Positions 1,428 to 55,015 of a DNA stretch of 64,000 nt are shown here, piece after piece. Both the position numbers and the translations under genes were made by a program. Below the pieces are notes generated by a model. It was given only the letters and a program-made list of their open reading frames with translations, was not told where the DNA came from and did no database searches. Position 1 is the first letter of the stretch. The number at the start of each line of letters is the position of its first letter. Origin of the DNA: a bacterium (GTDB lineage Bacteria > Patescibacteriota > Minisyncoccia > UBA6257 > UBA9933); contig JAJYNK010000009.1 in NCBI GenBank assembly GCA_021786355.1, forward strand, positions 517 through 64,516, given 5' to 3'.

Positions 1428-1895
1428 TTGTGGCCTCAATTAAAAAATTTTAAATTCAAAAAAATAATTATTTTTGTTTTGTATAAAAACACAAGGATCA
1501 AAATGCGTTTTGTAACTACCCATATTTTAGCGGATAGAAACTATGCCAAAAAATTGTTTAAATACCTGGTTTTTTTGGACGGAAAACCAGCGACTAGCTT
1601 TAAAATTGAAAAATTAATCCGGCAAATAGCTGATAAAATCGGCGAAATTTATCTTGAGGCAAAAAGGTATAATTTTGAAAAAACAAAATTAAAATTTTTG
1701 GAGCAACAATCTTATGAATTAAAAGGGTTATTTGCCTTGGCCGGTTTAAATTGGCGGCCGGAGAAAGCAATGATTAAAAAAGTAAAAAATAAGCGGTTAA
1801 AAACAGATTTTATAAAAATGTCCTACCCGAAAAATAAAAAGGAATACGAAAAATATATAGGAGTGGCATACTTGAAAAAGATTTACAATTTATGA
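1428..1895 (+). CDS. Hypothetical protein, probable C-terminal part of the same frameshifted gene (frame open from 1209; 1428 is a TTG codon)
   Basis: Hand translation of frame 0 from 1209 runs without a stop through 1428 into this ORF. No in-frame ATG lies upstream of the TTG at 1428. Its stop overlaps the ATG of the next gene (ATGA). Confidence 0.4.
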   Translation: MWPQLKNFKFKKIIIFVLYKNTRIKMRFVTTHILADRNYAKKLFKYLVFLDGKPATSFKIEKLIRQIADKIGEIYLEAKRYNFEKTKLKFLEQQSYELKGLFALAGLNWRPEKAMIKKVKNKRLKTDFIKMSYPKNKKEYEKYIGVAYLKKIYNL

Positions 1896-2215
1896 AAGAA
1901 ATAAAAGGGATCGTGGCAAACAAAGGAAAAGCCAGGGGTAGAGTAAAAATCATTAAAAACTCCGCGGACTTTAAAAATTTTAAAGAAGGAGAAATTTTAG
2001 TTGCGGAATTAACCAATCCCTCTTTCGCGGCAATTATTATAAAAGCAGCGGCTATAATTACGGATAAAGGAGGAATAACTTCTCATCCTGCTATCATAGC
2101 CAGAGAATTCGGCATACCTTGCCTTGTCGGCGCGAAAAACGCCACTAAAATTTTAAAAGATGGCGACAGGATTGAAATGGATTTAAACAAAGGAACTGTA
2201 AAAATTTTGAAATAA
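1892..2215 (+). CDS. Stand-alone PEP-utilising enzyme mobile (phosphohistidine swivel) domain protein
   Basis: Contains GGITSHPAIIAREFGIPCLVG, the classic phospho-His motif of PEP synthase/PPDK/enzyme I. Only 107 aa long, with no ATP-grasp or TIM-barrel domain. Confidence 0.8.
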   Translation: MKEIKGIVANKGKARGRVKIIKNSADFKNFKEGEILVAELTNPSFAAIIIKAAAIITDKGGITSHPAIIAREFGIPCLVGAKNATKILKDGDRIEMDLNKGTVKILK

Positions 2216-12697: not shown

Positions 12698-12832
12698 GTG
12701 CCGGTTTTATTTAAATTTTACAAGTGGAGCGAAGTTAAATTTAACTTTAAAACCGAACACCCCGCCGCGGCGGGGCAAGGGTTTTGTGTCTGAATTTTGT
12801 TCGCTCGCTCTCCAAAATTCAGACAAAGCCCT

Positions 12833-13223: not shown

Positions 13224-14186
13224 TTGTTCAGCAAATTAACTAATCAACTAATTAACCAGACTGCAACACGCATGGCTGATATAAATAAACTACTTAAAAA
13301 CTATCTCGACTATCTTGAGATAGAGAAAGGCAGAACCAAAGAAACGCGGGAGAATTACGAACATTACTTAAAAACGTTTTTTGAATTTGCCAGAATAAAA
13401 TCCGAAAGCGATATCAACGCTGACAACGTAAGAGATTTTAGAATCTATCTGGCGCGGCTCCATAATCTTCGAGATGGTGAAAATTTTAAGCGCACAACTC
13501 AAAGCTATTATATAATAGCGCTTAGAAACTTTTTGAAATTTTTGGCGAAAAACGACTATAAAGTTTTGGCTTCGGAAAAAATCGAGCTTCCCAGGATCCC
13601 AAAACAACAAATAGACATAATGGAATACTCGGATTTGGAGCGGCTTATGGCGGCGCCCAAAACAACCGATTTAAAAGGGCTGCGCGACAAGGCGATTTTG
13701 GAAGTTTTGTTTTCAACCGGACTTCGAGTGTCGGAATTGTGCGCTTTAAACCGATATTTTGACTTGAATAGGGGAGAAATTTCCGTACGCGGTAAAGGCG
13801 GGAAAATACGAGTGGTATTTTTAGCCGACTCCGCTAAAAAAGCCATTAAAAATTATCTGGATAAACGAACCGACGCCGAAGAAGCTTTATTTGTGAGCTT
13901 AACCAAAGCAAAAAATCCAAAAGTGCTTGGAAGAATTATTCCTCGCACAGTCCAACGCTTGATAGATTTTTATGGAAGAAAGGCAGGCATCTCACAAAAA
14001 ATCCATCCGCATTTAATCCGACACAGCTTTGCCACTGATTTATTAATAGGCGGAGCGGATTTAAGGTCAGTACAGGAACTTTTAGGCCACAGCAATATCT
14101 CCACAACCCAGATTTATACGCACTTGACCAATAAAGAGCTTAAAGAAATACATAAAACTTTTCACGGGAGACGCAGGAGCGAGTAG
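13224..14186 (+). CDS. Tyrosine site-specific recombinase, XerC/XerD-like (true start possibly MADINK at 13272)
   Basis: Catalytic signatures LIRHSFATDLL (HxxR) and LGHSNISTTQIYTHL (Tyr) plus an N-terminal SAM-like core-binding domain. Confidence 0.85.
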   Translation: MFSKLTNQLINQTATRMADINKLLKNYLDYLEIEKGRTKETRENYEHYLKTFFEFARIKSESDINADNVRDFRIYLARLHNLRDGENFKRTTQSYYIIALRNFLKFLAKNDYKVLASEKIELPRIPKQQIDIMEYSDLERLMAAPKTTDLKGLRDKAILEVLFSTGLRVSELCALNRYFDLNRGEISVRGKGGKIRVVFLADSAKKAIKNYLDKRTDAEEALFVSLTKAKNPKVLGRIIPRTVQRLIDFYGRKAGISQKIHPHLIRHSFATDLLIGGADLRSVQELLGHSNISTTQIYTHLTNKELKEIHKTFHGRRRSE

Positions 14187-14239
14187 AAGCAACCACCAAC
14201 TAATAAGATTTAGGACATAAATAAAAAACGTAGAAGTGT

Positions 14240-14263
14240 CGTTGTATAGTATACTATACAACG
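14240..14263. repeat. Palindrome CGTTGTATAGTATACTATACAACG, one of five copies of the TATAGTATACTATA-core palindrome
   Basis: Other copies at 16889-16912, 32445-32466, 43175-43200 (inside a CDS) and 54896-54923. Confidence 0.85.
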
Positions 14264-14303
14264 CAAGAGGAAACGTACTTTAGTGATTAAATAAGTTTTT
14301 TGT

Positions 14304-14324
14304 TTTGTGTCCTCGGTGGGAGTC
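14304..14324. repeat. 21-bp direct repeat TTTGTGTCCTCGGTGGGAGTC duplicating the tRNA-Leu 3' end (att-like). Second copy at 14483-14503.
   Basis: Identical 21-mer at both positions. The second copy includes the last 17 nt of the tRNA. Confidence 0.8.
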
Positions 14325-14486
14325 CTCTTCCCCCGTAATTTTTCGTTCATAAATAAACATGAAAAATTACTCCTCCAGAGCCGGGGTTTTAAAAAAGCAA
14401 AGCAGTTTGCTTTTTTAAATACCCTTCTCCTCCCTTGTGATGTAAAAACTATAAATCCCTTTGAAATCAAAGGGATTTATAGTTTG

Positions 14487-14568
14487 TGTCCTCGGTGGGA
14501 GTCGAACCCACAACCCTTACGGGATAGCGTCCTAAGCGCTACGCGTATTCCATTTCCGCCACGAGGAC
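14487..14568 (-). tRNA. tRNA-Leu (anticodon UAG), long variable arm
   Basis: Reverse complement folds as acceptor GTCCTCG/CGAGGAC, anticodon stem TAGCG/CGCTA with loop CTTAGGA, variable arm TCCCGTAAGGGTT, T arm GTGGG-TTCGACT-CCCAC. Confidence 0.8.
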
Positions 14569-14629
14569 ATATTAAACAAATAAATTATACATTATTAAAG
14601 TGTGCTTTTTAATAAACCCCCTTATTTTA

Positions 14630-14952: not shown

Positions 14953-15669
14953 ATGGCAGAAGAAAAGAAAGCTGATTTCAGCGCCGGAGAAGTTGGAAAA
15001 GAGCTCGGGATAACGGCAGGAGGTATTGCTGTTTTTGAACTCCTCAGAAAAGCCTGGGGGCTTATGAAGGTGGGGTCAAGAACCGCTGCCGCTGAAGTCA
15101 TTCGCGAAGTCGGGAGCAAGGCGGCCGCGGAAACGGCCAAAAAAGTGCAGGCGAAGATGAGCGATCATTACCGCGCCAAACTTCTTGTTTTTCTACAGAA
15201 GATGGAGTCTTCAACGGAACCGAGGCAGCAGAGCGCGGCAAAAACCATCAGAAAGAGGCAAGAGGACCGACAGTTTTGCCGGCCCCGGTCTTATTCTGAC
15301 GGCGGAAATTATCGACCCGGCGAAGAAAACCTTCTCGTGAATTGCCTCGGAAAAGTTCTAATACTCAAAGAACCTGAGAAAGAAGTAGCGGCAGAGGCGG
15401 CGGCGACAGAAAAAGAAACCATCAATTTCTTCGTCTGGCTCGGCGAACTCCCGCCTCAAGAATTCGACAGCGCGATTGAGTTTCTCAACCATGACATAGT
15501 TATGCAGTGGTTAAGAATGCTCGGCATTCGTTTCAACGAAATATTCGGTATCGTCGGTTCAGAACTACGTCCTTTCAACGATAAATGGGTTAAGTGGCTC
15601 AACAATCGCCGCACAGCACGCGGTCGGAGGACTGTAGAATATCAAAAGGAGGGCCCTCCTCATGCGTGA
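14953..15669 (+). CDS. Hypothetical protein (238 aa) in a higher-GC island
   Basis: GC visibly higher than the backbone. The stop overlaps the next start (ATGCGTGA), which suggests translational coupling. Confidence 0.5.
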   Translation: MAEEKKADFSAGEVGKELGITAGGIAVFELLRKAWGLMKVGSRTAAAEVIREVGSKAAAETAKKVQAKMSDHYRAKLLVFLQKMESSTEPRQQSAAKTIRKRQEDRQFCRPRSYSDGGNYRPGEENLLVNCLGKVLILKEPEKEVAAEAAATEKETINFFVWLGELPPQEFDSAIEFLNHDIVMQWLRMLGIRFNEIFGIVGSELRPFNDKWVKWLNNRRTARGRRTVEYQKEGPPHA

Positions 15670-16612
15670 AACTCTTAGTGAAATACTCCTAACGCTGCGG
15701 CTCATTCTCGACACAGTCATCACCGGCGCCGCGGACGCCGCCGAGGTCCTTGCCTTTGTCAGGGGCGAAAACAGAACCGATCTTGAAATATATCGGATCG
15801 GACTTTCACGGCTCGCGATTGCAGCGGCGCTTCTGCCTATACCAATCCTGCTTCTGGGAATTTTCGGATTCTCGATGTGGATTTCAATTGCGGGACTTAT
15901 TTGGGCGTTCTTCACGATCTTACTCTCTTTGCTGGCCGCGCCGATTGCGTTGATAATCGACGCGGTCTGGCACAGAACAACAGTAGGACTTGGAGAACGT
16001 TATGTTCGATTAACGCTACATGTTATTTTCGCCGAGTTATCGTTCGCAATAATGCTTATAGTCATTCCTATCGAGAAAAGACCTGAGTTGATCCCGTTGC
16101 TACTGCTCTTGGCCCTTATCATTTTTATTGGGACTCGTCTTTTTGGGGGCGCTTTCATCTTTAACGGAAGGGCAATAACGGTTGTTGCATCAATGATTTT
16201 CATCGCAATCGTCATTTCGTTGTTTCTCCCCCGCACAACGGCTCTCGCGAGAACCGCGGCGAGAGGAATCGATAATAATGTCGTTGCAGTATTTTCCTTA
16301 AATTCTCCTACGAAACCAACGGAAATAGGAACCAACCAGAAAATCCTCGTTGGGATGGAATTCCCGATCAAGCCAGGGGAGGATAATTATCTCTTCGCAA
16401 CTTCGGTCAAGGGAAAACGAACCGAGTACAAGTTGGAGGCCAACCAGCCCATCATCATTCGCTCAGCCCAACCCGACGGTTCTTTAAGGGATTTTCGACT
16501 GGGACCCGGAAGGTTTGGCTGGGAGGTTTTAAGAGATCAACAGGCTGGGCAGCTTCGGGTGCGAAGCGAACAGCCTGCGGTTCTCCGAATTATTGACGTG
16601 AACGAAAGTTGA
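15662..16612 (+). CDS. Polytopic membrane protein (about 6 TM helices) with a C-terminal soluble domain, in a higher-GC island
   Basis: Long hydrophobic stretches (LLLGIFGFSMWISIAGLIWAFFTILLSLLAAPIALII, LLLLLALIIFIGTRLFGGAFIF, VVASMIFIAIVISLF) followed by a 110-aa hydrophilic tail. Confidence 0.5.
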   Translation: MRETLSEILLTLRLILDTVITGAADAAEVLAFVRGENRTDLEIYRIGLSRLAIAAALLPIPILLLGIFGFSMWISIAGLIWAFFTILLSLLAAPIALIIDAVWHRTTVGLGERYVRLTLHVIFAELSFAIMLIVIPIEKRPELIPLLLLLALIIFIGTRLFGGAFIFNGRAITVVASMIFIAIVISLFLPRTTALARTAARGIDNNVVAVFSLNSPTKPTEIGTNQKILVGMEFPIKPGEDNYLFATSVKGKRTEYKLEANQPIIIRSAQPDGSLRDFRLGPGRFGWEVLRDQQAGQLRVRSEQPAVLRIIDVNES

Positions 16613-16793: not shown

Positions 16794-17029
16794 ATTTATT
16801 ACAGTTTCATACGAATTATAAATACACACGGATTGGTGCGTATAAAAAAATAAAATAGTTTGCAAAATTAATTCGGAAATAAATTTTTAGTGGTATAGTA
16901 TACTATACCACTTAACCGTTTTATATCGCATATAAAAATTATTTATTGTAAGAATATTGATTATAGGAAAAATAATAAAAAACACCCCAGTAAATCGGAG
17001 TGTTTTTTTAAATCACTAAATAAATAAAT

Positions 17030-17413
17030 TTATAAGTTTCCGGCAATTCCTCTTATTGCTGCGACTAGCCCTTTAGCAAGCAAGCCAACCGCGACAGATA
17101 CAAGAGCCCAGAGTATATGATTTCTTGCCGCTTTGGTTTTTGCTTCATCTCCGCCGGAAGTTAAAAACTGAAACGCTCCCCAAACAATAAAAACAACCGC
17201 CAAGGCAATTAATAATCCCAATAAATAATTAGCCACTGTATCTAGCGTATCGTACACATTAGAAAGGCCGGTTATGGGGATATTTCCGGGTTGTCCTTGG
17301 CCTGGCGGAGTAAATATCGCGGCAAACGAAAATACCGGCAACGCGAGCGATAAAATCGCTCCTGAATAAATAATACTTTGTAAAACTTTTTTCATTTTTT
17401 TGTATCGTATCAA
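17030..17413 (-). CDS. VirB2/TrbC-like pilin-family protein A (signal peptide, then two hydrophobic helices joined by TSGGD)
   Basis: YLLGLLIALAVVFIVWGAFQFLTSGGDEAKTKAARNHILWALVSVAVGLLAKGLV is the characteristic two-helix hairpin. Confidence 0.5.
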   Translation of the reverse strand: MIRYKKMKKVLQSIIYSGAILSLALPVFSFAAIFTPPGQGQPGNIPITGLSNVYDTLDTVANYLLGLLIALAVVFIVWGAFQFLTSGGDEAKTKAARNHILWALVSVAVGLLAKGLVAAIRGIAGNL

Positions 17414-17442
17414 TTCGACCTCGACCTTTTTCTTTATATTTA

Positions 17443-17853
17443 TTATAACGTTTGTATTATTCCGTACAACGCGCCGATGATTCCTCGCGCGAGTAAAATT
17501 ACTAATAATCCGATTGCGGCGTATAAAACTGTTTTTTGGCCTTCCTGGAATTTTTTAGGGTCGCCTGACGCGGTCATCATTTTCCAAGCGCCGTAGATAA
17601 CTATTATCACAGCCACAGAAACCGAAACGCCGATAAAATAATCGATTATTTTGGAAAGGACGCTATCAAGAGTCGAGCCGGATCCAAAATAATTAAAAAG
17701 CTGGCCGCTCCCGCCGCTAGCAGAAGGACTTGCTCCAGTTGGCTGACCGCCGCTTGTTGTCGGCTGACCTCCGCTTGTTTCGGCTAATTGATAAAAAGCA
17801 AACAAAGGCGCGACTTTAAGCCAATTCAAAATTTTTTTAATGTTTTTTCTCAT
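17443..17853 (-). CDS. VirB2/TrbC-like pilin-family protein B, with a low-complexity TSGGQPTTSGGQPT repeat
   Basis: DYFIGVSVSVAVIIVIYGAWKMMTASGDPKKFQEGQKTVLYAAIGLLVILLARGII has the same architecture as A and C. An imperfect 21-bp tandem repeat in the DNA encodes SGGQPT twice. Confidence 0.5.
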   Translation of the reverse strand: MRKNIKKILNWLKVAPLFAFYQLAETSGGQPTTSGGQPTGASPSASGGSGQLFNYFGSGSTLDSVLSKIIDYFIGVSVSVAVIIVIYGAWKMMTASGDPKKFQEGQKTVLYAAIGLLVILLARGIIGALYGIIQTL

Positions 17854-17994
17854 CCCAGTACTACAACTTCGATTATTTTTGTGTTAATTCTCGAGGTTGT
17901 GATTTATTGATTATTCTTATTTTTATTACCCAATATCAACTTAATTCAGGTTCTCAAAAATTTATAGAGAATGTATCGAAGTTGTAGTACTGGG
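17854..17994. repeat. 20-bp perfect inverted repeat CCCAGTACTACAACTTCGAT (17854-17873) / ATCGAAGTTGTAGTACTGGG (17975-17994) flanking a 101-bp AT-rich segment. The left arm abuts the ATG of pilin gene B.
   Basis: Arms verified base by base. The start codon of B (reverse complement of CAT 17851-17853) is immediately adjacent. Confidence 0.85.
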
Positions 17995-18026
17995 CATTTT
18001 TAAAATTATAAAAAATTTTTAACTGC

Positions 18027-18377
18027 TTAGCAAGGAAATTTATTCCATGGACCTAAACTGCCGCCGACAAGAACTTTCAAAACCAAATCAACTATGAACC
18101 CGGCTAAAAGAAGAATGGCTATGCCGATTAAGATAGTTCTTATTTTTCCAACCGCTTCTTTGTACTTTCCGGGATCTCCGGCAGAAGTCATTATTTTAAA
18201 CCCCGCCCAAACCAAAGCGCCGAGCGCCAAAACAAACGCGAAAACAATGACAAAATTATAAATATTTTGAGCTAACTGGAATAAATCGCAAATAGTACAT
18301 TCGAGCTTAGCCGTTCCCGGACCGCACTGAACTAAAGGGGTCAAAGCCGCATTGGCAATATTAACTAAATTAATCAT
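18027..18377 (-). CDS. VirB2/TrbC-like pilin-family protein C
   Basis: FVIVFAFVLALGALVWAGFKIMTSAGDPGKYKEAVGKIRTILIGIAILLLAGFIV. Confidence 0.5.
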   Translation of the reverse strand: MINLVNIANAALTPLVQCGPGTAKLECTICDLFQLAQNIYNFVIVFAFVLALGALVWAGFKIMTSAGDPGKYKEAVGKIRTILIGIAILLLAGFIVDLVLKVLVGGSLGPWNKFPC

Positions 18378-41967: not shown

Positions 41968-42041
41968 CGCGGGCGACCGGATTTGAACCGGCGACCTCTG
42001 CCGTGACAGGGCAGCGCTCTACCAGACTAAGCTACGCCCGC
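41968..42041 (-). tRNA. tRNA-Asp (anticodon GUC)
   Basis: Reverse complement folds as acceptor GCGGGCG/CGCCCGC, anticodon stem CTGCC/GGCAG with loop CTGTCAC, T arm GCCGG-TTCAAAT-CCGGT. The 5' end overlaps the last 15 nt of the LAGLIDADG ORF. Confidence 0.8.
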
Positions 42042-42695
42042 TTGCCGGTATATATTATATTTTCTCCTTAAATAAATCAACTTTTCTGGATTACGCTCGT
42101 ACATGAACATAAATAATTTTCCTGAGTCCCTAATAGAATAATTTAGATACCAAGAATTATCGCTTTTTTTAAAAAGTGATCCTGTAAGATTTATCGAATC
42201 CGATAAGGCCTTTTTTAACTCCTTGATAAAAACTTCGCTTCCTGAAGTAAACCGGCTAAGAAGTACTCGCGATTTGTTTTTTCGATCCGCTTTTTTAAAA
42301 AACCCGAATGAAACATTTCCGCCTCCATCAAAATAACCTCGCACAAAGTGGCAAAAATATTTACTTGGGACGCGTGGTAATTTTATTGTTTTGCTTTTTG
42401 CCGGAGTAAGACCTAATTTTATTAAGTCACAAAACATGGCCTTACTCCCTATTTGCAATCTATAAACGGTCTTGTGCTTTTTATCTCTTTGAATAATCGA
42501 AATTTTATGGTTTGATTCAAGAGTTTTTTGAATTTCTCTTAATAAATCCGCGTCTGTAATTTGAAACTCTATAAAATGCGCGCCTCTTTTGTTTTTAAGC
42601 ATATTCCCATCCGCCGTGAAAAACCCCAAAATATACGCCATTTCCGGAGTCCATTTTTTGAAAAAATTTTCGTTTTTTGTTTTATAAATCGGCAT
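42027..42695 (-). CDS. LAGLIDADG homing endonuclease (two-motif, monomeric type)
   Basis: Motifs AYILGFFTADGN and HFVRGYFDGGGNVSF. Confidence 0.8.
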   Translation of the reverse strand: MPIYKTKNENFFKKWTPEMAYILGFFTADGNMLKNKRGAHFIEFQITDADLLREIQKTLESNHKISIIQRDKKHKTVYRLQIGSKAMFCDLIKLGLTPAKSKTIKLPRVPSKYFCHFVRGYFDGGGNVSFGFFKKADRKNKSRVLLSRFTSGSEVFIKELKKALSDSINLTGSLFKKSDNSWYLNYSIRDSGKLFMFMYERNPEKLIYLRRKYNIYRQAGVA

Positions 42696-42729
42696 TTATA
42701 CCAATTTTACCACAAAAAACATGGATTTT

Positions 42730-43563
42730 TTACTTCGGTTTTATAACTATAAATCTTTTCTTCCACCCTTTTTTAAATTCCTCTGTTGTGGCTTTTCTCT
42801 CAATAAGATTTGGATTGTTTATGTCGGGATCGGCGAATAAAACAATGTCGCCGTCTATCCCAAAAATAACCACCAAATGTCCGCCGTTTTGCGGATTTAG
42901 ATTCTTATATATGGAAGCTATGACCGGCCCGTTTTTTAACTCTTCAATCATTCGTTCAAAAGCGGTTTCCGTTTCTTCTTTCGCGAAATCAAATCTATTG
43001 CCCCTTAAACCAAAGTGTTTTACTGCGGCGTCTATTAATCCTTGATGCAGCCACCCTATGTTTTCTACATAAGCTTTGTTTTTGACCCCGTCGGAAATTA
43101 TAAAGTCAACTAAAAATTCGGAAAGTTTTTTCATCTTATCTTCGTCTACGTTTTTTGTCGGCCAAGCTCTTTCCAAGTGGTATAGTATACTATACCACTT
43201 GACTGAGTCGTGTTCGTCTAATAATTCGTTGAGTTTGTTTGTTTCGTTGCTTATCCAGTTTGCGTCATTTACGCTAGAAATAATCTTTGAATCTTTTAAA
43301 AGTTTTTTAATCGCTTTAACTACGTTTGGATCTTTTTTTGAAACACAATAAATCACAATCATCGCCAAAGAAGCGGGACCGCAGACTCTTTTTGCCCAAA
43401 ATTCGTTGCAGCCGTCGCCTTCGCAAAGCCCCTGTCCGTCCGGCAGGCGGGCATACCCGCTTTTGCCGATATCCAAATGCTGAGAAATGTTAACCGGAAG
43501 ATGGTGGCGAATTAAGAATTTTTTTTCCCGTCTTTTGTCCTGTTTTTTATTTATCGTATTCAT
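42730..43563 (-). CDS. Papain-like cysteine peptidase, C39-like family (Peptidase_C39_2-like)
   Basis: Cys box RVCGPASLAMIVIY and a C-terminal GGHLVVIFGIDGDIVLFADPD His/Asp region. The CDS contains a 26-bp perfect palindrome encoding KWYSILYHL. Confidence 0.5.
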   Translation of the reverse strand: MNTINKKQDKRREKKFLIRHHLPVNISQHLDIGKSGYARLPDGQGLCEGDGCNEFWAKRVCGPASLAMIVIYCVSKKDPNVVKAIKKLLKDSKIISSVNDANWISNETNKLNELLDEHDSVKWYSILYHLERAWPTKNVDEDKMKKLSEFLVDFIISDGVKNKAYVENIGWLHQGLIDAAVKHFGLRGNRFDFAKEETETAFERMIEELKNGPVIASIYKNLNPQNGGHLVVIFGIDGDIVLFADPDINNPNLIERKATTEEFKKGWKKRFIVIKPK

Positions 43564-43771
43564 GCCCGGTAGTAGAACAACGATTTATAAATCAAATATT
43601 TCTAAATATTTGATTTATTCCGTTTATTTAAATTAGATTTGTTTATTTATAAATATCTTTATATTTTACCCTTCAATGATTTAATAACCAGAAAAGGAAT
43701 CGATCGTTGTTTCACTAACCGGGCATATTTTGTTAAATCTACTTGATATTGAAATTATTGCAATATTTTAC

Positions 43772-45971
<2,200 letters not shown>

Positions 45972-54810: not shown

Positions 54811-55015
54811 GGTTGGTTGATTAGTTAATTGGTTAGCTGGCAAGAAGAGACAAGATAATAATAGAATAGAAACTAAGGAGATAAAAGTCAAAACCTAAGT
54901 TGTATAGTATACTATACAACTTAAACTTTCTTTTTTAGAGAATAATTTGTGTGTAAAAAACAGCCCGTTGGCGAAACGCCGCGGGGCTGGTGCAAAGAGC
55001 GAGAAAATCAGATGT

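Follow-up and report, generated by a model that had tools for sequence, protein, structure and literature searches.

A candidate gene-less, site-specific cassette in the T-loop of a Patescibacteria tRNA-Leu gene, with relatives at other tRNA genes

What is to be made of a tRNA 3' end that stands twice, 158 bp apart, with no gene in between? The question is raised by a 64,000-nucleotide stretch from a bacterium of the Patescibacteriota (NCBI GenBank assembly GCA_021786355.1, contig JAJYNK010000009.1, positions 517 to 64,516 of the forward strand; hereafter ‘the window’, numbered from its first letter). Here the 21-mer TTTGTGTCCTCGGTGGGAGTC occurs exactly twice, at 14304-14324 and 14483-14503, and the second copy is the true 3' end of a minus-strand tRNA-Leu gene (ARAGORN, Rfam); both points had been made in the initial annotation, which also placed a recombinase gene outside the repeats, correctly (13272-14186, plus strand), and took the whole for the scar of a lost or decayed integrative element, or for tandem att junctions. 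We arrive at a different reading, to which we give rather better than even chances: that the 158 bp and one repeat make up a gene-less cassette of ~179 bp, non-autonomous and site-specific, which entered tRNA-Leu(tag) at the 56|57 boundary of its T-loop and is probably moved in trans via a folded hairpin. The repeats and their target are as follows.

14304-14324, minus strand: distal direct repeat, an exact 21-mer, read as the original tRNA-Leu 3' end, now displaced (from T-loop position 57 to 74, with 3 trailer bases)
14483-14503, minus strand: proximal direct repeat, read as the cassette-borne copy that now completes the functional tRNA-Leu
14486-14568, minus strand: tRNA-Leu(tag), the intact target gene (ARAGORN; Rfam tRNA model, 53.2 bits)

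The proximal copy comprises tRNA positions 57-74 (18 nt of 3' end) and three trailer bases. A search for extra 21-mers found no more within the window at up to 3 mismatches (0 matches in shuffled sequence), and no third, degenerate copy enclosing the recombinase at up to 5 mismatches in 24 nt. Along the window the genes run pnp, an NYN-domain gene and rpsO (all minus strand), the recombinase (plus) and tRNA-Leu (minus). No fewer than eight assemblies of the window's species, independent of one another, share this arrangement, which is therefore no assembly artefact.

Eight species-level relatives, retrieved via the Xer protein, show what the locus looks like with and without the insert. In the sister species (L079) the xer stop codon TAA is directly followed by TTTGTGTCCTCGGTGGGAGTC|GAACCC, that is, by an intact tRNA end lying 3 bp from the stop: an empty site. 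A second relative (L001) has the arrangement of L079 plus ~180 bp inserted after ...GGGAGTC, with the 21-mer duplicated, and its distal copy abuts the xer stop exactly like the intact tRNA end of L079. We take the xer-side copy to be the displaced original end, because the original left flank is retained there; on this comparison of sequences, the tRNA-side copy would have come with the insert and would regenerate the tRNA. That copy encodes CCA (TTTGGTGTCC) in L001, L068, L070 and L073 (L001 and several strains of the window's species), and CCA is found neither in the distal copy nor in the empty-site genes of L079, L076 and L078. Over 3.4 kb of upstream sequence L079 and L001 are the closest pair (90.7% identical), with the window at 87.0% and 85.3% to the two; the window is thus more distant from both and yet filled. 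Since L001 and L079 are closest but only L001 is filled, and the window is filled as well, the insert has either been gained twice or been precisely lost at least once. At the same spot other relatives have either 139 unrelated bases or a ~130-residue Cys-rich open reading frame (ORF) that has a promoter and a terminator of its own. It can therefore be upheld that an insertion at a specific site, the tRNA 3' end, has the two 21-mers as its junctions, the site being empty in L079 and filled in L001 and the window.

The insert itself is built of three hairpins, rather than the two first described, separated by short conserved strands. Its parts, on which the comparisons below depend, are these (coordinates in plus-strand order).

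14325-14335: J1, conserved C-rich junction strand CTCTTCCCCCG; 10 of 11 positions invariant in 10 aligned copies (C/T at the eighth)
14335-14370: H1, a hairpin variable in sequence and length; 7 of 9 pairs changed on both sides across copies
14370-14382: J2, conserved strand CTCCTCCAGAGCC, which holds the AGAG strand of helix P2; invariant in all copies
14383-14424: H2, a long hairpin, rich in A/T, with GGG/CCC as its closing pairs and an internal loop that is conserved; 94% of cells paired, 6 pairs changed on both sides
14425-14445: TTC and a degenerate remnant of the inverted arm (arm2); in other members, an inverted copy of the target tRNA from position 57, typically of ~11 nt
14446-14485: H3, a perfect hairpin with 19-nt arms, directly 3' of tRNA-Leu and flanked by A/T on both sides

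The perfect hairpin noticed earlier is thus present, with the correction that its arms are 19 nt long and that it overlaps the start of the second repeat. On the minus strand TTTTT follows H3, which reads as a terminator that the cassette supplies to tRNA-Leu; on the plus strand the hairpins are separated by C-rich strands. H3 has undergone a compensatory change from T-A to C-G in L068 and L001. Neither ARAGORN nor Rfam finds a tmRNA, a tRNA-like gene or a known ribozyme in the insert, and a small minus-strand ORF (GGAGGAG, 9 nt, ATG, 25 codons) was discarded as a candidate gene, being unconserved in L001 and absent from the other copies.

A metagenome scan with an insert-internal 21-mer, of which J2 forms part, recovered seven loci with a homologous core of ~100 nt. 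Cores lie directly 3' of tRNA-Ser(gct), tRNA-Trp, tRNA-Pro (two alleles), tRNA-Asp and a tRNA truncated where its contig stops; another metagenome locus is a nest that has no tRNA. On the strand antisense to the tRNA, the order is always direct repeat, CTCTTCCYCCG, H1, CTCCTCCAGAGCC, H2 (GGG/CCC), TTC and inverted arm, spacer, H3 and intact tRNA. The direct repeat is in each case that tRNA's own 3' end, and it ends in the T-loop at 56|57 (within one base in one copy); it is 18-21 bp long, or 37 bp in the tRNA-Pro copy, and the spacing between its copies, 158 bp in the window, is ~100-250 bp in other members. The inverted arm makes 8-16 contiguous Watson-Crick pairs with the repeat in 7 of 9 copies, with at most 1 in 2000 shuffles as good; the run is 11 for Ser, Pro and His, and 11 for Trp when measured against the tRNA-side copy. 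The arm of L084 and that of L088 are closer matches to the tRNA-side copy than to the displaced one, which, together with the CCA of the tRNA-side copy in L001 and L068, fits an arm and a tRNA copy that arrived together. The same CCA hinted at an origin by reverse transcription, a candidate that we rejected: other copies lack CCA, and a boundary at 56|57 does not match a stop at m1A58.

Beyond these loci, a covariance-model search of ~700 kb of Patescibacteria loci yielded one extra copy only, shortened and diverged, at a tRNA-His that shares a contig with the tRNA-Pro copy. A scan of 104 tRNAs that made no use of the core found the same layout with other cores at tRNA-Gly (a ~175-nt core with a perfect 21-nt inverted arm) and at tRNA-Arg (a decayed copy); the ~175-nt core has in common with the main type a J1-like start, half of H1 and the end ...GCCGG-TTC-arm. 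On one contig (L089) three tRNAs are occupied, by differently built copies. The nest (L085) holds two tandem units of the ~175-nt type and a main-type copy, the tRNA being gone, and from this order it would represent successive insertions with loss of the target gene. In L085 we also observe, at 1750-2090 (minus strand), that the two tandem second-type units, of ~170 nt, each end in ...CTGCCGGTCCGATTCCCCTTGGCGCCA, a tRNA-like 3' end with CCA, before the main-type cassette begins; these units have no match in Rfam, tmRNA included. At least eight copies all share one orientation, and the idea that the inverted arms make an invertible switch was dropped on that count. Neighbouring genes are ordinary chromosomal ones (PheRS, TsaD, PilM, ABC transporters, GDPD and an AAA ATPase named as Paceibacterota), no integrase lies near the examined copies other than the ancestral xer, and the family belongs to Patescibacteria, in genomes of the Paceibacteria type. 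The two tRNA-Pro alleles (L087 2082-2201 versus L089 8684-8831; also L094-L103, of one Paceibacterota species) differ only by the 28-nt H1, the gap measuring 334 bp without it and 362 bp with it; the deletion is clean and apparently took place between short AAATTT repeats.

This distribution disposes of a simple explanation, namely that the repeat arose by local duplication or replication slippage with no element involved. Slippage can make short direct repeats, and the repeat does run 3 bases past the tRNA; the 158 bp, however, bear no relation to the sequence around them and have homologues among inserts at further tRNAs, in other genomes, so that local duplication is refuted by the distribution of the family and we leave it next to no chance. 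The initial annotation had named relatives with the duplication but no associated element as the finding that would favour local duplication. Half of this has come about, as L001 carries the duplication without any large element, but the duplication is not a simple local one because the enclosed DNA belongs to a dispersed family.

The insert has also been kept with unusual fidelity. Between the window and L001, the stretch 14304-14440 (from the xer-side repeat to the arm remnant) shows 1 difference in 137 nt, and this sole difference inside the core falls in H1; flanking genes of the same pair are 82-89% identical, and other spacers are 71% identical or cannot be aligned. From these figures we would attribute the conservation of the insert to constraint or to recent transfer, and not to drift in a scar.

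Such fidelity bears directly on the reading as a scar, to which the tRNA ends otherwise lend themselves well. Islands at tRNA genes (tDNA islands) have their two ends marked by the regenerated gene and the displaced fragment (PMC4383910), and mycobacteriophage Ms6 has its attB in a T-loop, with crossover in that loop (PMC1762012). Like tDNA islands and prophages, the cassette sits in the 3' part of a tRNA gene, provides a replacement 3' end and leaves a displaced repeat of 18-21 bp at its far end; unlike them it measures ~180 bp instead of kilobases, lacks an integrase or any gene, and has a structured core and an internal, inverted copy of its target. Of the hallmarks used by Islander, the regenerated tRNA and the displaced 3' fragment are present, whereas an internal tyrosine integrase and kilobases of cargo are absent. 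Cis-mobilisable elements (CIMEs), in turn, are att-flanked remnants of integrative and conjugative or integrative and mobilisable elements that have lost their recombination and transfer genes and undergo accretion at tRNA genes (PMC5704250). The cassette resembles them in its att-like flanks, in having no mobility genes and in the tandem accretion seen in the L085 nest: attL and attR are kept and the genes are gone, as in a CIME. It differs in that CIMEs are unlike one another and decay from a parent, whereas the cassette core recurs with purifying selection and covariation and no recognisable larger parent was seen among the listed matches.

Could the insert nevertheless be CIME-like, the remains of an island or prophage at tRNA-Leu of which everything but the DNA beside attL and attR has been lost? 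A displaced tRNA 3' fragment beside a regenerated tRNA is the classic signature of a tDNA island (PMC4383910), CIMEs do keep attL and attR without integration genes (PMC5704250), and a pseudo-T-arm beside the distal repeat (GGGGG-AAGAG-GACTCCCAC on the tRNA strand) looks like an attP core. We still consider this improbable: independent decay would not leave the same ~100-nt core with compensatory changes at five or more tRNAs, that core is strongly constrained (the single difference in 137 nt), and no integrase lies near any copy except the ancestral xer. Nor does a longer, integrase-bearing relative appear among the listed matches in the metagenome, in IMG/VR, or in phages and plasmids; three pattern scans of IMG/VR viral contigs gave 0 or 4 chance matches, without a model match or a tRNA, and blastn found no match to the core in INPHARED phages or PLSDB plasmids. 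The proposal that the 158 bp are what decay has left of something larger is thus not supported, for they are far better conserved than the neighbouring genes, their core recurs at similar size beside no fewer than five other tRNAs, and no larger version was found among these matches. Literature searches likewise found no description of such an element.

If the insert is not debris, its structure becomes the main guide to what it does. We tested this on an alignment of 10 copies with four helices: P1 (formed from the arms), P2 (CUCU/AGAG), H1 and H2. These are paired in 88.6% of cells (34-59% in slid controls), with 22 pairs changed on both sides and 0 of 500 shuffles as good; bases 1-4 of J1 (CTCT), which pair with AGAG at 14377-14380 to make P2, are paired in all ten copies. 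RNAalifold returns the same three-way junction on either strand (-32.0 and -36.8 kcal/mol), recovering H2 on both. There is accordingly no strand signal from folding, nor any from mismatch type, with 8 G-U and 11 A-C pairs and so no excess of G-U. This lack of strand bias suits DNA hairpins at least as well as RNA.

It also bears on an alternative that we regard as unlikely, though well short of negligible, in which the insert is a host-beneficial, small structured RNA, antisense to the tRNA (plus strand) and ending at H3. The C-rich single-stranded motifs (CUCUUCCCCCG, CUCCUCC) would then bind Shine-Dalgarno-like sequences, or, in a variant, the RNA would be a mimic of the tRNA end, or an anti-tRNA RNA, with its closing helix made from the tRNA-derived arms and the repeats needed for pairing or imitation. 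RsaE/RoxS binds Shine-Dalgarno-like sequences via C-rich motifs, and a search of Rfam 15 gave as its best match just this family (RF01820; 14381-14481, plus strand, E = 0.003), to which the insert is akin in composition and layout only, with C-rich unpaired motifs between hairpins followed by a terminator. The invariance of J1 and J2 beside covarying hairpins, the terminator-like H3 after the core in plus orientation, conservation far above that of the flanks and fixation in every site-reaching assembly of the species all agree with an RNA gene. However, the RsaE match scores 35.7 bits, far under the gathering threshold of 79, and rests partly on the degenerate arm that is specific to the window; Rfam searches of seven related loci gave nothing consistent and no RsaE match in other members. 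Both strands fold equally well, as said, and the core comes with no conserved promoter, because the upstream sequence is host flank and different at each site. An RNA gene would, moreover, leave unexplained the clean empty site, the displaced tRNA end, the nests and the three differently built copies on one contig. The RNA reading is compatible with a mobile cassette if the cassette carries the RNA.

We therefore return to the cassette, and to how it might move. Insertion polymorphism, a constant junction, direct and inverted repeats specific to each tRNA, conservation of the core and covariation of its hairpins are what is observed here; taken together they suggest that the cassette is probably moved in trans through a folded hairpin. 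We envisage that, having no gene, it is acted upon by a recombinase encoded elsewhere, a tyrosine recombinase being the most plausible. Were the cassette free, single-stranded or extruded, its inverted arm could pair with the tRNA end that it carries, so as to mimic the duplex of the tRNA gene from position 57 onwards, with H3 in the loop. Cleavage of the antisense strands, at ...GA(N)TC|GAA for the gene and ...GA(N)TC|CTCTTCC for the cassette, would be followed by a swap, and the TTC before the arm can pair with the incoming GAA. The product, after replication, would run: displaced end | core ... arm - H3 - new end | rest of the tRNA; a single strand exchange followed by replication would thus give exactly the order that is observed. 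As the cassette would bring its own copy of the tRNA from 57 to the 3' end, the gene would stay intact, and the original end of tRNA-Leu would be pushed 179 bp off, to beside the xer stop codon. On this scheme the junction of an excised circle would read ...GGTGGGAGTC|CTCTTCCCCC, preceded by H3, and an empty site in the window's species would read xer stop followed by TTTGTGTCC...GAGTCGAACCC. Little is left of the inverted arm in the window's copy, which may by now be immobile; the lasting local effect of this copy is that three hairpins, one of them a terminator for the tRNA, separate the convergent genes xer and tRNA-Leu.

Several points weigh against this reading. The comparison of empty and filled sites rests on one pair only, in which L079 could reflect a precise secondary loss through the 21-bp repeats instead of a never-occupied site; the site is filled in every assembly of the window's species that extends to it, and at the tRNA-Pro site, traced via the flanking AAA_28 protein, 10 of 10 places examined are filled too (at least 24 contigs carry the protein). 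The family amounts to about nine independent copies. In the window, the longest run of pairs between arm2 and the repeat is only 5 (6-16 in the eight other copies), yet the arm2 stretch, up to 14440, is identical in the window and L001, which hints at some other constraint; a functional RNA, too, could have J1 and J2 invariant and single-stranded. As for mechanism, base pairing helps only one of the two ligations in the proposed swap (TTC with GAA), and neither a free, circular or excised form nor a trans-acting enzyme came to light. Nor does the scheme account for how the direct repeat and the inverted arm come to be matched anew to each tRNA; the near-identical cores of L084 and L085 bear different arms.

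Folded single-stranded sites offer a precedent: Bouvier (2005), for the integron attC site, and Val (2005), for the CTX attP site, are said to have found that such sites recombine with a duplex target. Like integron cassettes and CTX-type integrative mobile elements exploiting Xer (IMEXs), the cassette is gene-poor, has no recombinase of its own and bears inverted repeats that could fold into a hairpin mimicking the target, with the putative crossover at its foot; the stems are conserved in structure more than in sequence, there is no strand bias, and cargo, inverse core, loop and core site follow one another in the same layout. The geometry of attC is recognisable in the order arm2 - H3 - tRNA-end copy, with the junction at the predicted foot of the stem. 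The differences are as clear. The target is the T-loop of a tRNA, at several loci, and not attI or, as for IMEXs, dif; the cargo is a non-coding three-way junction; and there is neither an array nor a platform of IntI with attI and promoter, none being found at the window or near the other copies. The arms are also tRNA-specific and typically of ~11 nt, in contrast to the 7-bp GTTRRRY of attC: instead of the R'/R'' consensus GTTRRRY / RYYYAAC they consist of tRNA sequence (e.g. GACTCCCACTC), with the junction at TTC|GA.

Two further classes share fewer traits. Miniature inverted-repeat and palindrome-associated transposable elements (MITEs, PATEs) are likewise 100-250 bp, non-coding, hairpin-rich, present in several copies per genome in some lineages and presumably mobilised in trans. 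The cassette has no terminal inverted repeats of its own, since one arm is the target, it occupies one precise tRNA position, and in place of a short target-site duplication of fixed length (2-10 bp) it shows a target-specific repeat of 18-37 bp that regenerates the gene. The group I introns of Patescibacteria tRNAs interrupt the tRNA at 35/36 and are self-splicing (PMC13011429); here tRNA-Leu is intact and unspliced, the insert follows position 56 with a duplication, and there is no match to RF00028.

Given these differences we file the element as a new form of site-specific integrative DNA, a non-autonomous structured mini-cassette. A bolder generalisation, which we offer tentatively and hold to be the less probable outcome, is that ‘tRNA T-loop cassettes’ constitute an undescribed class of mobile DNA, gene-less though autonomous-looking in behaviour, each with a folded copy of its target (TTC and typically ~11 nt) and a three-way-junction core, read by a host or helper recombinase and having its arms rewritten on moving to a new tRNA, which would amount to an integron-cassette or CTX-like mechanism directed at the tRNA genes of genome-reduced Patescibacteria, or else that the core is a new tRNA-linked regulatory RNA riding on this mechanism. 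Patescibacteria have tiny genomes and few recognised mobile elements. Should the proposal be right, it would add a new minimal form of site-specific mobile DNA that enters tRNA genes at one exact nucleotide, and would give a handle on a recombinase, perhaps the single XerA-type enzyme, that uses folded substrates in these bacteria; tRNA fragments or ‘att scars’ beside tRNA genes of the candidate phyla radiation would be possible live cassettes instead of debris, and the core, were it an RNA, would join the small set of structured non-coding RNAs that are particular to this radiation.

What part, then, does the neighbouring recombinase play, along with the palindrome beside it? The features concerned, with the promoter-like site on the far side of the tRNA, are these.

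13272-14186, plus strand: gene for a XerA-type tyrosine recombinase, outside the cassette (Pfam Phage_integrase and SAM_1)
14187-14303: a block of 117 bp from xer to the distal repeat, outside the cassette; absent from the cassette-bearing L001, present downstream of xer in L080 and L082, which have no cassette
14584-14612, minus strand: promoter-like site upstream of tRNA-Leu (TTAAAA, 17 nt, TATAAT) from a consensus scan, given for context only; the stretch through 14605 is mostly inside a block identical to L001

The only NCBIfam model above its cut-off for the recombinase is NF040815 (239.3 bits against 220); the integron-integrase model gives 111.8 bits, with a cut-off of 265. Orthologues across Patescibacteria are 50-91% identical and keep the order rpsO-xer-tRNA-Leu, a convergent tRNA-Leu(tag) being found downstream of xer in ~21 of 49 relatives scanned (gap 11 to 2644 bp). 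Model match, vertical conservation and synteny are all those of a XerA-type enzyme, and the gene is a vertically inherited chromosomal one whose place beside tRNA-Leu predates the repeat. A specific tie between this recombinase and the repeats, as first suggested, is not supported, in that the xer-tRNA-Leu arrangement exists without the insert; the host Xer may still act on the cassette in trans.

The 24-bp palindrome CGTTGTATAGTATACTATACAACG is found where it was reported, at 14240-14263, between the recombinase and the first repeat. Its core GTTGTATAGTATACTATACAAC has four copies in the window (14241-14262, 16890-16911, 43177-43198 and 54899-54920), which form a family of perfect palindromes of 22-26 bp, GT(T/G)GTATAGTATACTATAC(A/C)AC, with at least three copies intergenic and two being a symmetric, compensated GTGG...CCAC variant. 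Downstream of xer it is 100% conserved in L080 and L082 and absent from L001, L079, L076, L078 and L081. XerS systems have their gene adjoining its own site. By analogy with XerS/difSL, the adjacent Xer and palindrome could be a Xer/dif-like pair, with the duplicated tRNA end a by-product: the recombinase is the single XerA-type enzyme, and the palindrome can be read as 11 + 6 + 11 bp (GTCGTTGTATA GTATAC TATACAACGCA). A dif site, however, is single-copy per replicon and lies at the terminus, and the palindrome, with its four copies in 64 kb, does not conform to this; two copies are symmetric variants, it is missing downstream of xer in the five relatives just named, GC skew does not turn at 14 kb, its cumulative minimum being at 42-45 kb, and cassette copies elsewhere have no xer nearby. 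We regard this pairing as largely refuted and its chances as very slight. The same facts, with the position of the palindrome outside the insert, speak against the suggestion that it is a dif-like or locus-specific recombinase site; on present sequence evidence it is a dispersed palindromic repeat, neither a dif site nor part of the element. Containing TATAGT/TATACT on both strands, it might serve as an operator or bidirectional promoter element, or be a repeat of the repetitive extragenic palindromic type. Elsewhere in the window, the cumulative GC skew rises steadily after its minimum at 42000-45000, which could mark a replication origin, and the palindrome copy at 43177 lies in that stretch, apparently in or at the edge of an ORF at 42730-43563 (minus strand).

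The surroundings of the locus show other small changes. The Cys-rich ORF in the gap between xer and tRNA-Leu encodes 125-131 residues with CxxC pairs (L076 3488-3880, L080 1528-1923, L081 1074-1451, L082 1369-1764); it belongs to no Pfam family and has its own TTGACT promoter-like site and terminator, without any duplication of the tRNA end. This makes the gap a hot spot for differing small inserts. In L080 (1999-2045 and 2192-2276) and L082 (1840-1886 and 1899-1983), a 3' fragment of ~45 nt from another type of tRNA-Leu (GGGCAGG acceptor) stands by a full, divergent tRNA-Leu(tag), whose promoter region is still homologous to that of the genus; L080 has an extra ~150 bp between fragment and gene. 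This suggests that the tRNA-Leu gene has been replaced in both. On the other side of the recombinase, between the NYN-domain gene and rpsO, ~119 bp of the window (12713-12831) are missing from L001; they hold a GC-rich hairpin (CCCCGCCGCGGCGGGG) and a long hairpin (GGGTTTTGTGTCTGAATTTTG...CAAAATTCAGACAAAGCCC), and so represent another small structured indel.

Past tRNA-Leu, two ORFs at 14953-16612 have no Pfam match and are conserved in the genus. Beyond the same tRNA in L078 (3862-4443) and L081 (1751-2335) lies a gene for a ~193-residue protein with PaaX_M and weak Cas2-like matches, in whose place the window has an unrelated ORF of 238 residues, a further instance of turnover in gene content by tRNA-Leu. 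Further along, at 17030-18377 (minus strand), the window carries three tandem paralogues of a small type IV secretion system pilin/TrbC-like protein (PF18895), typical of Patescibacteria.

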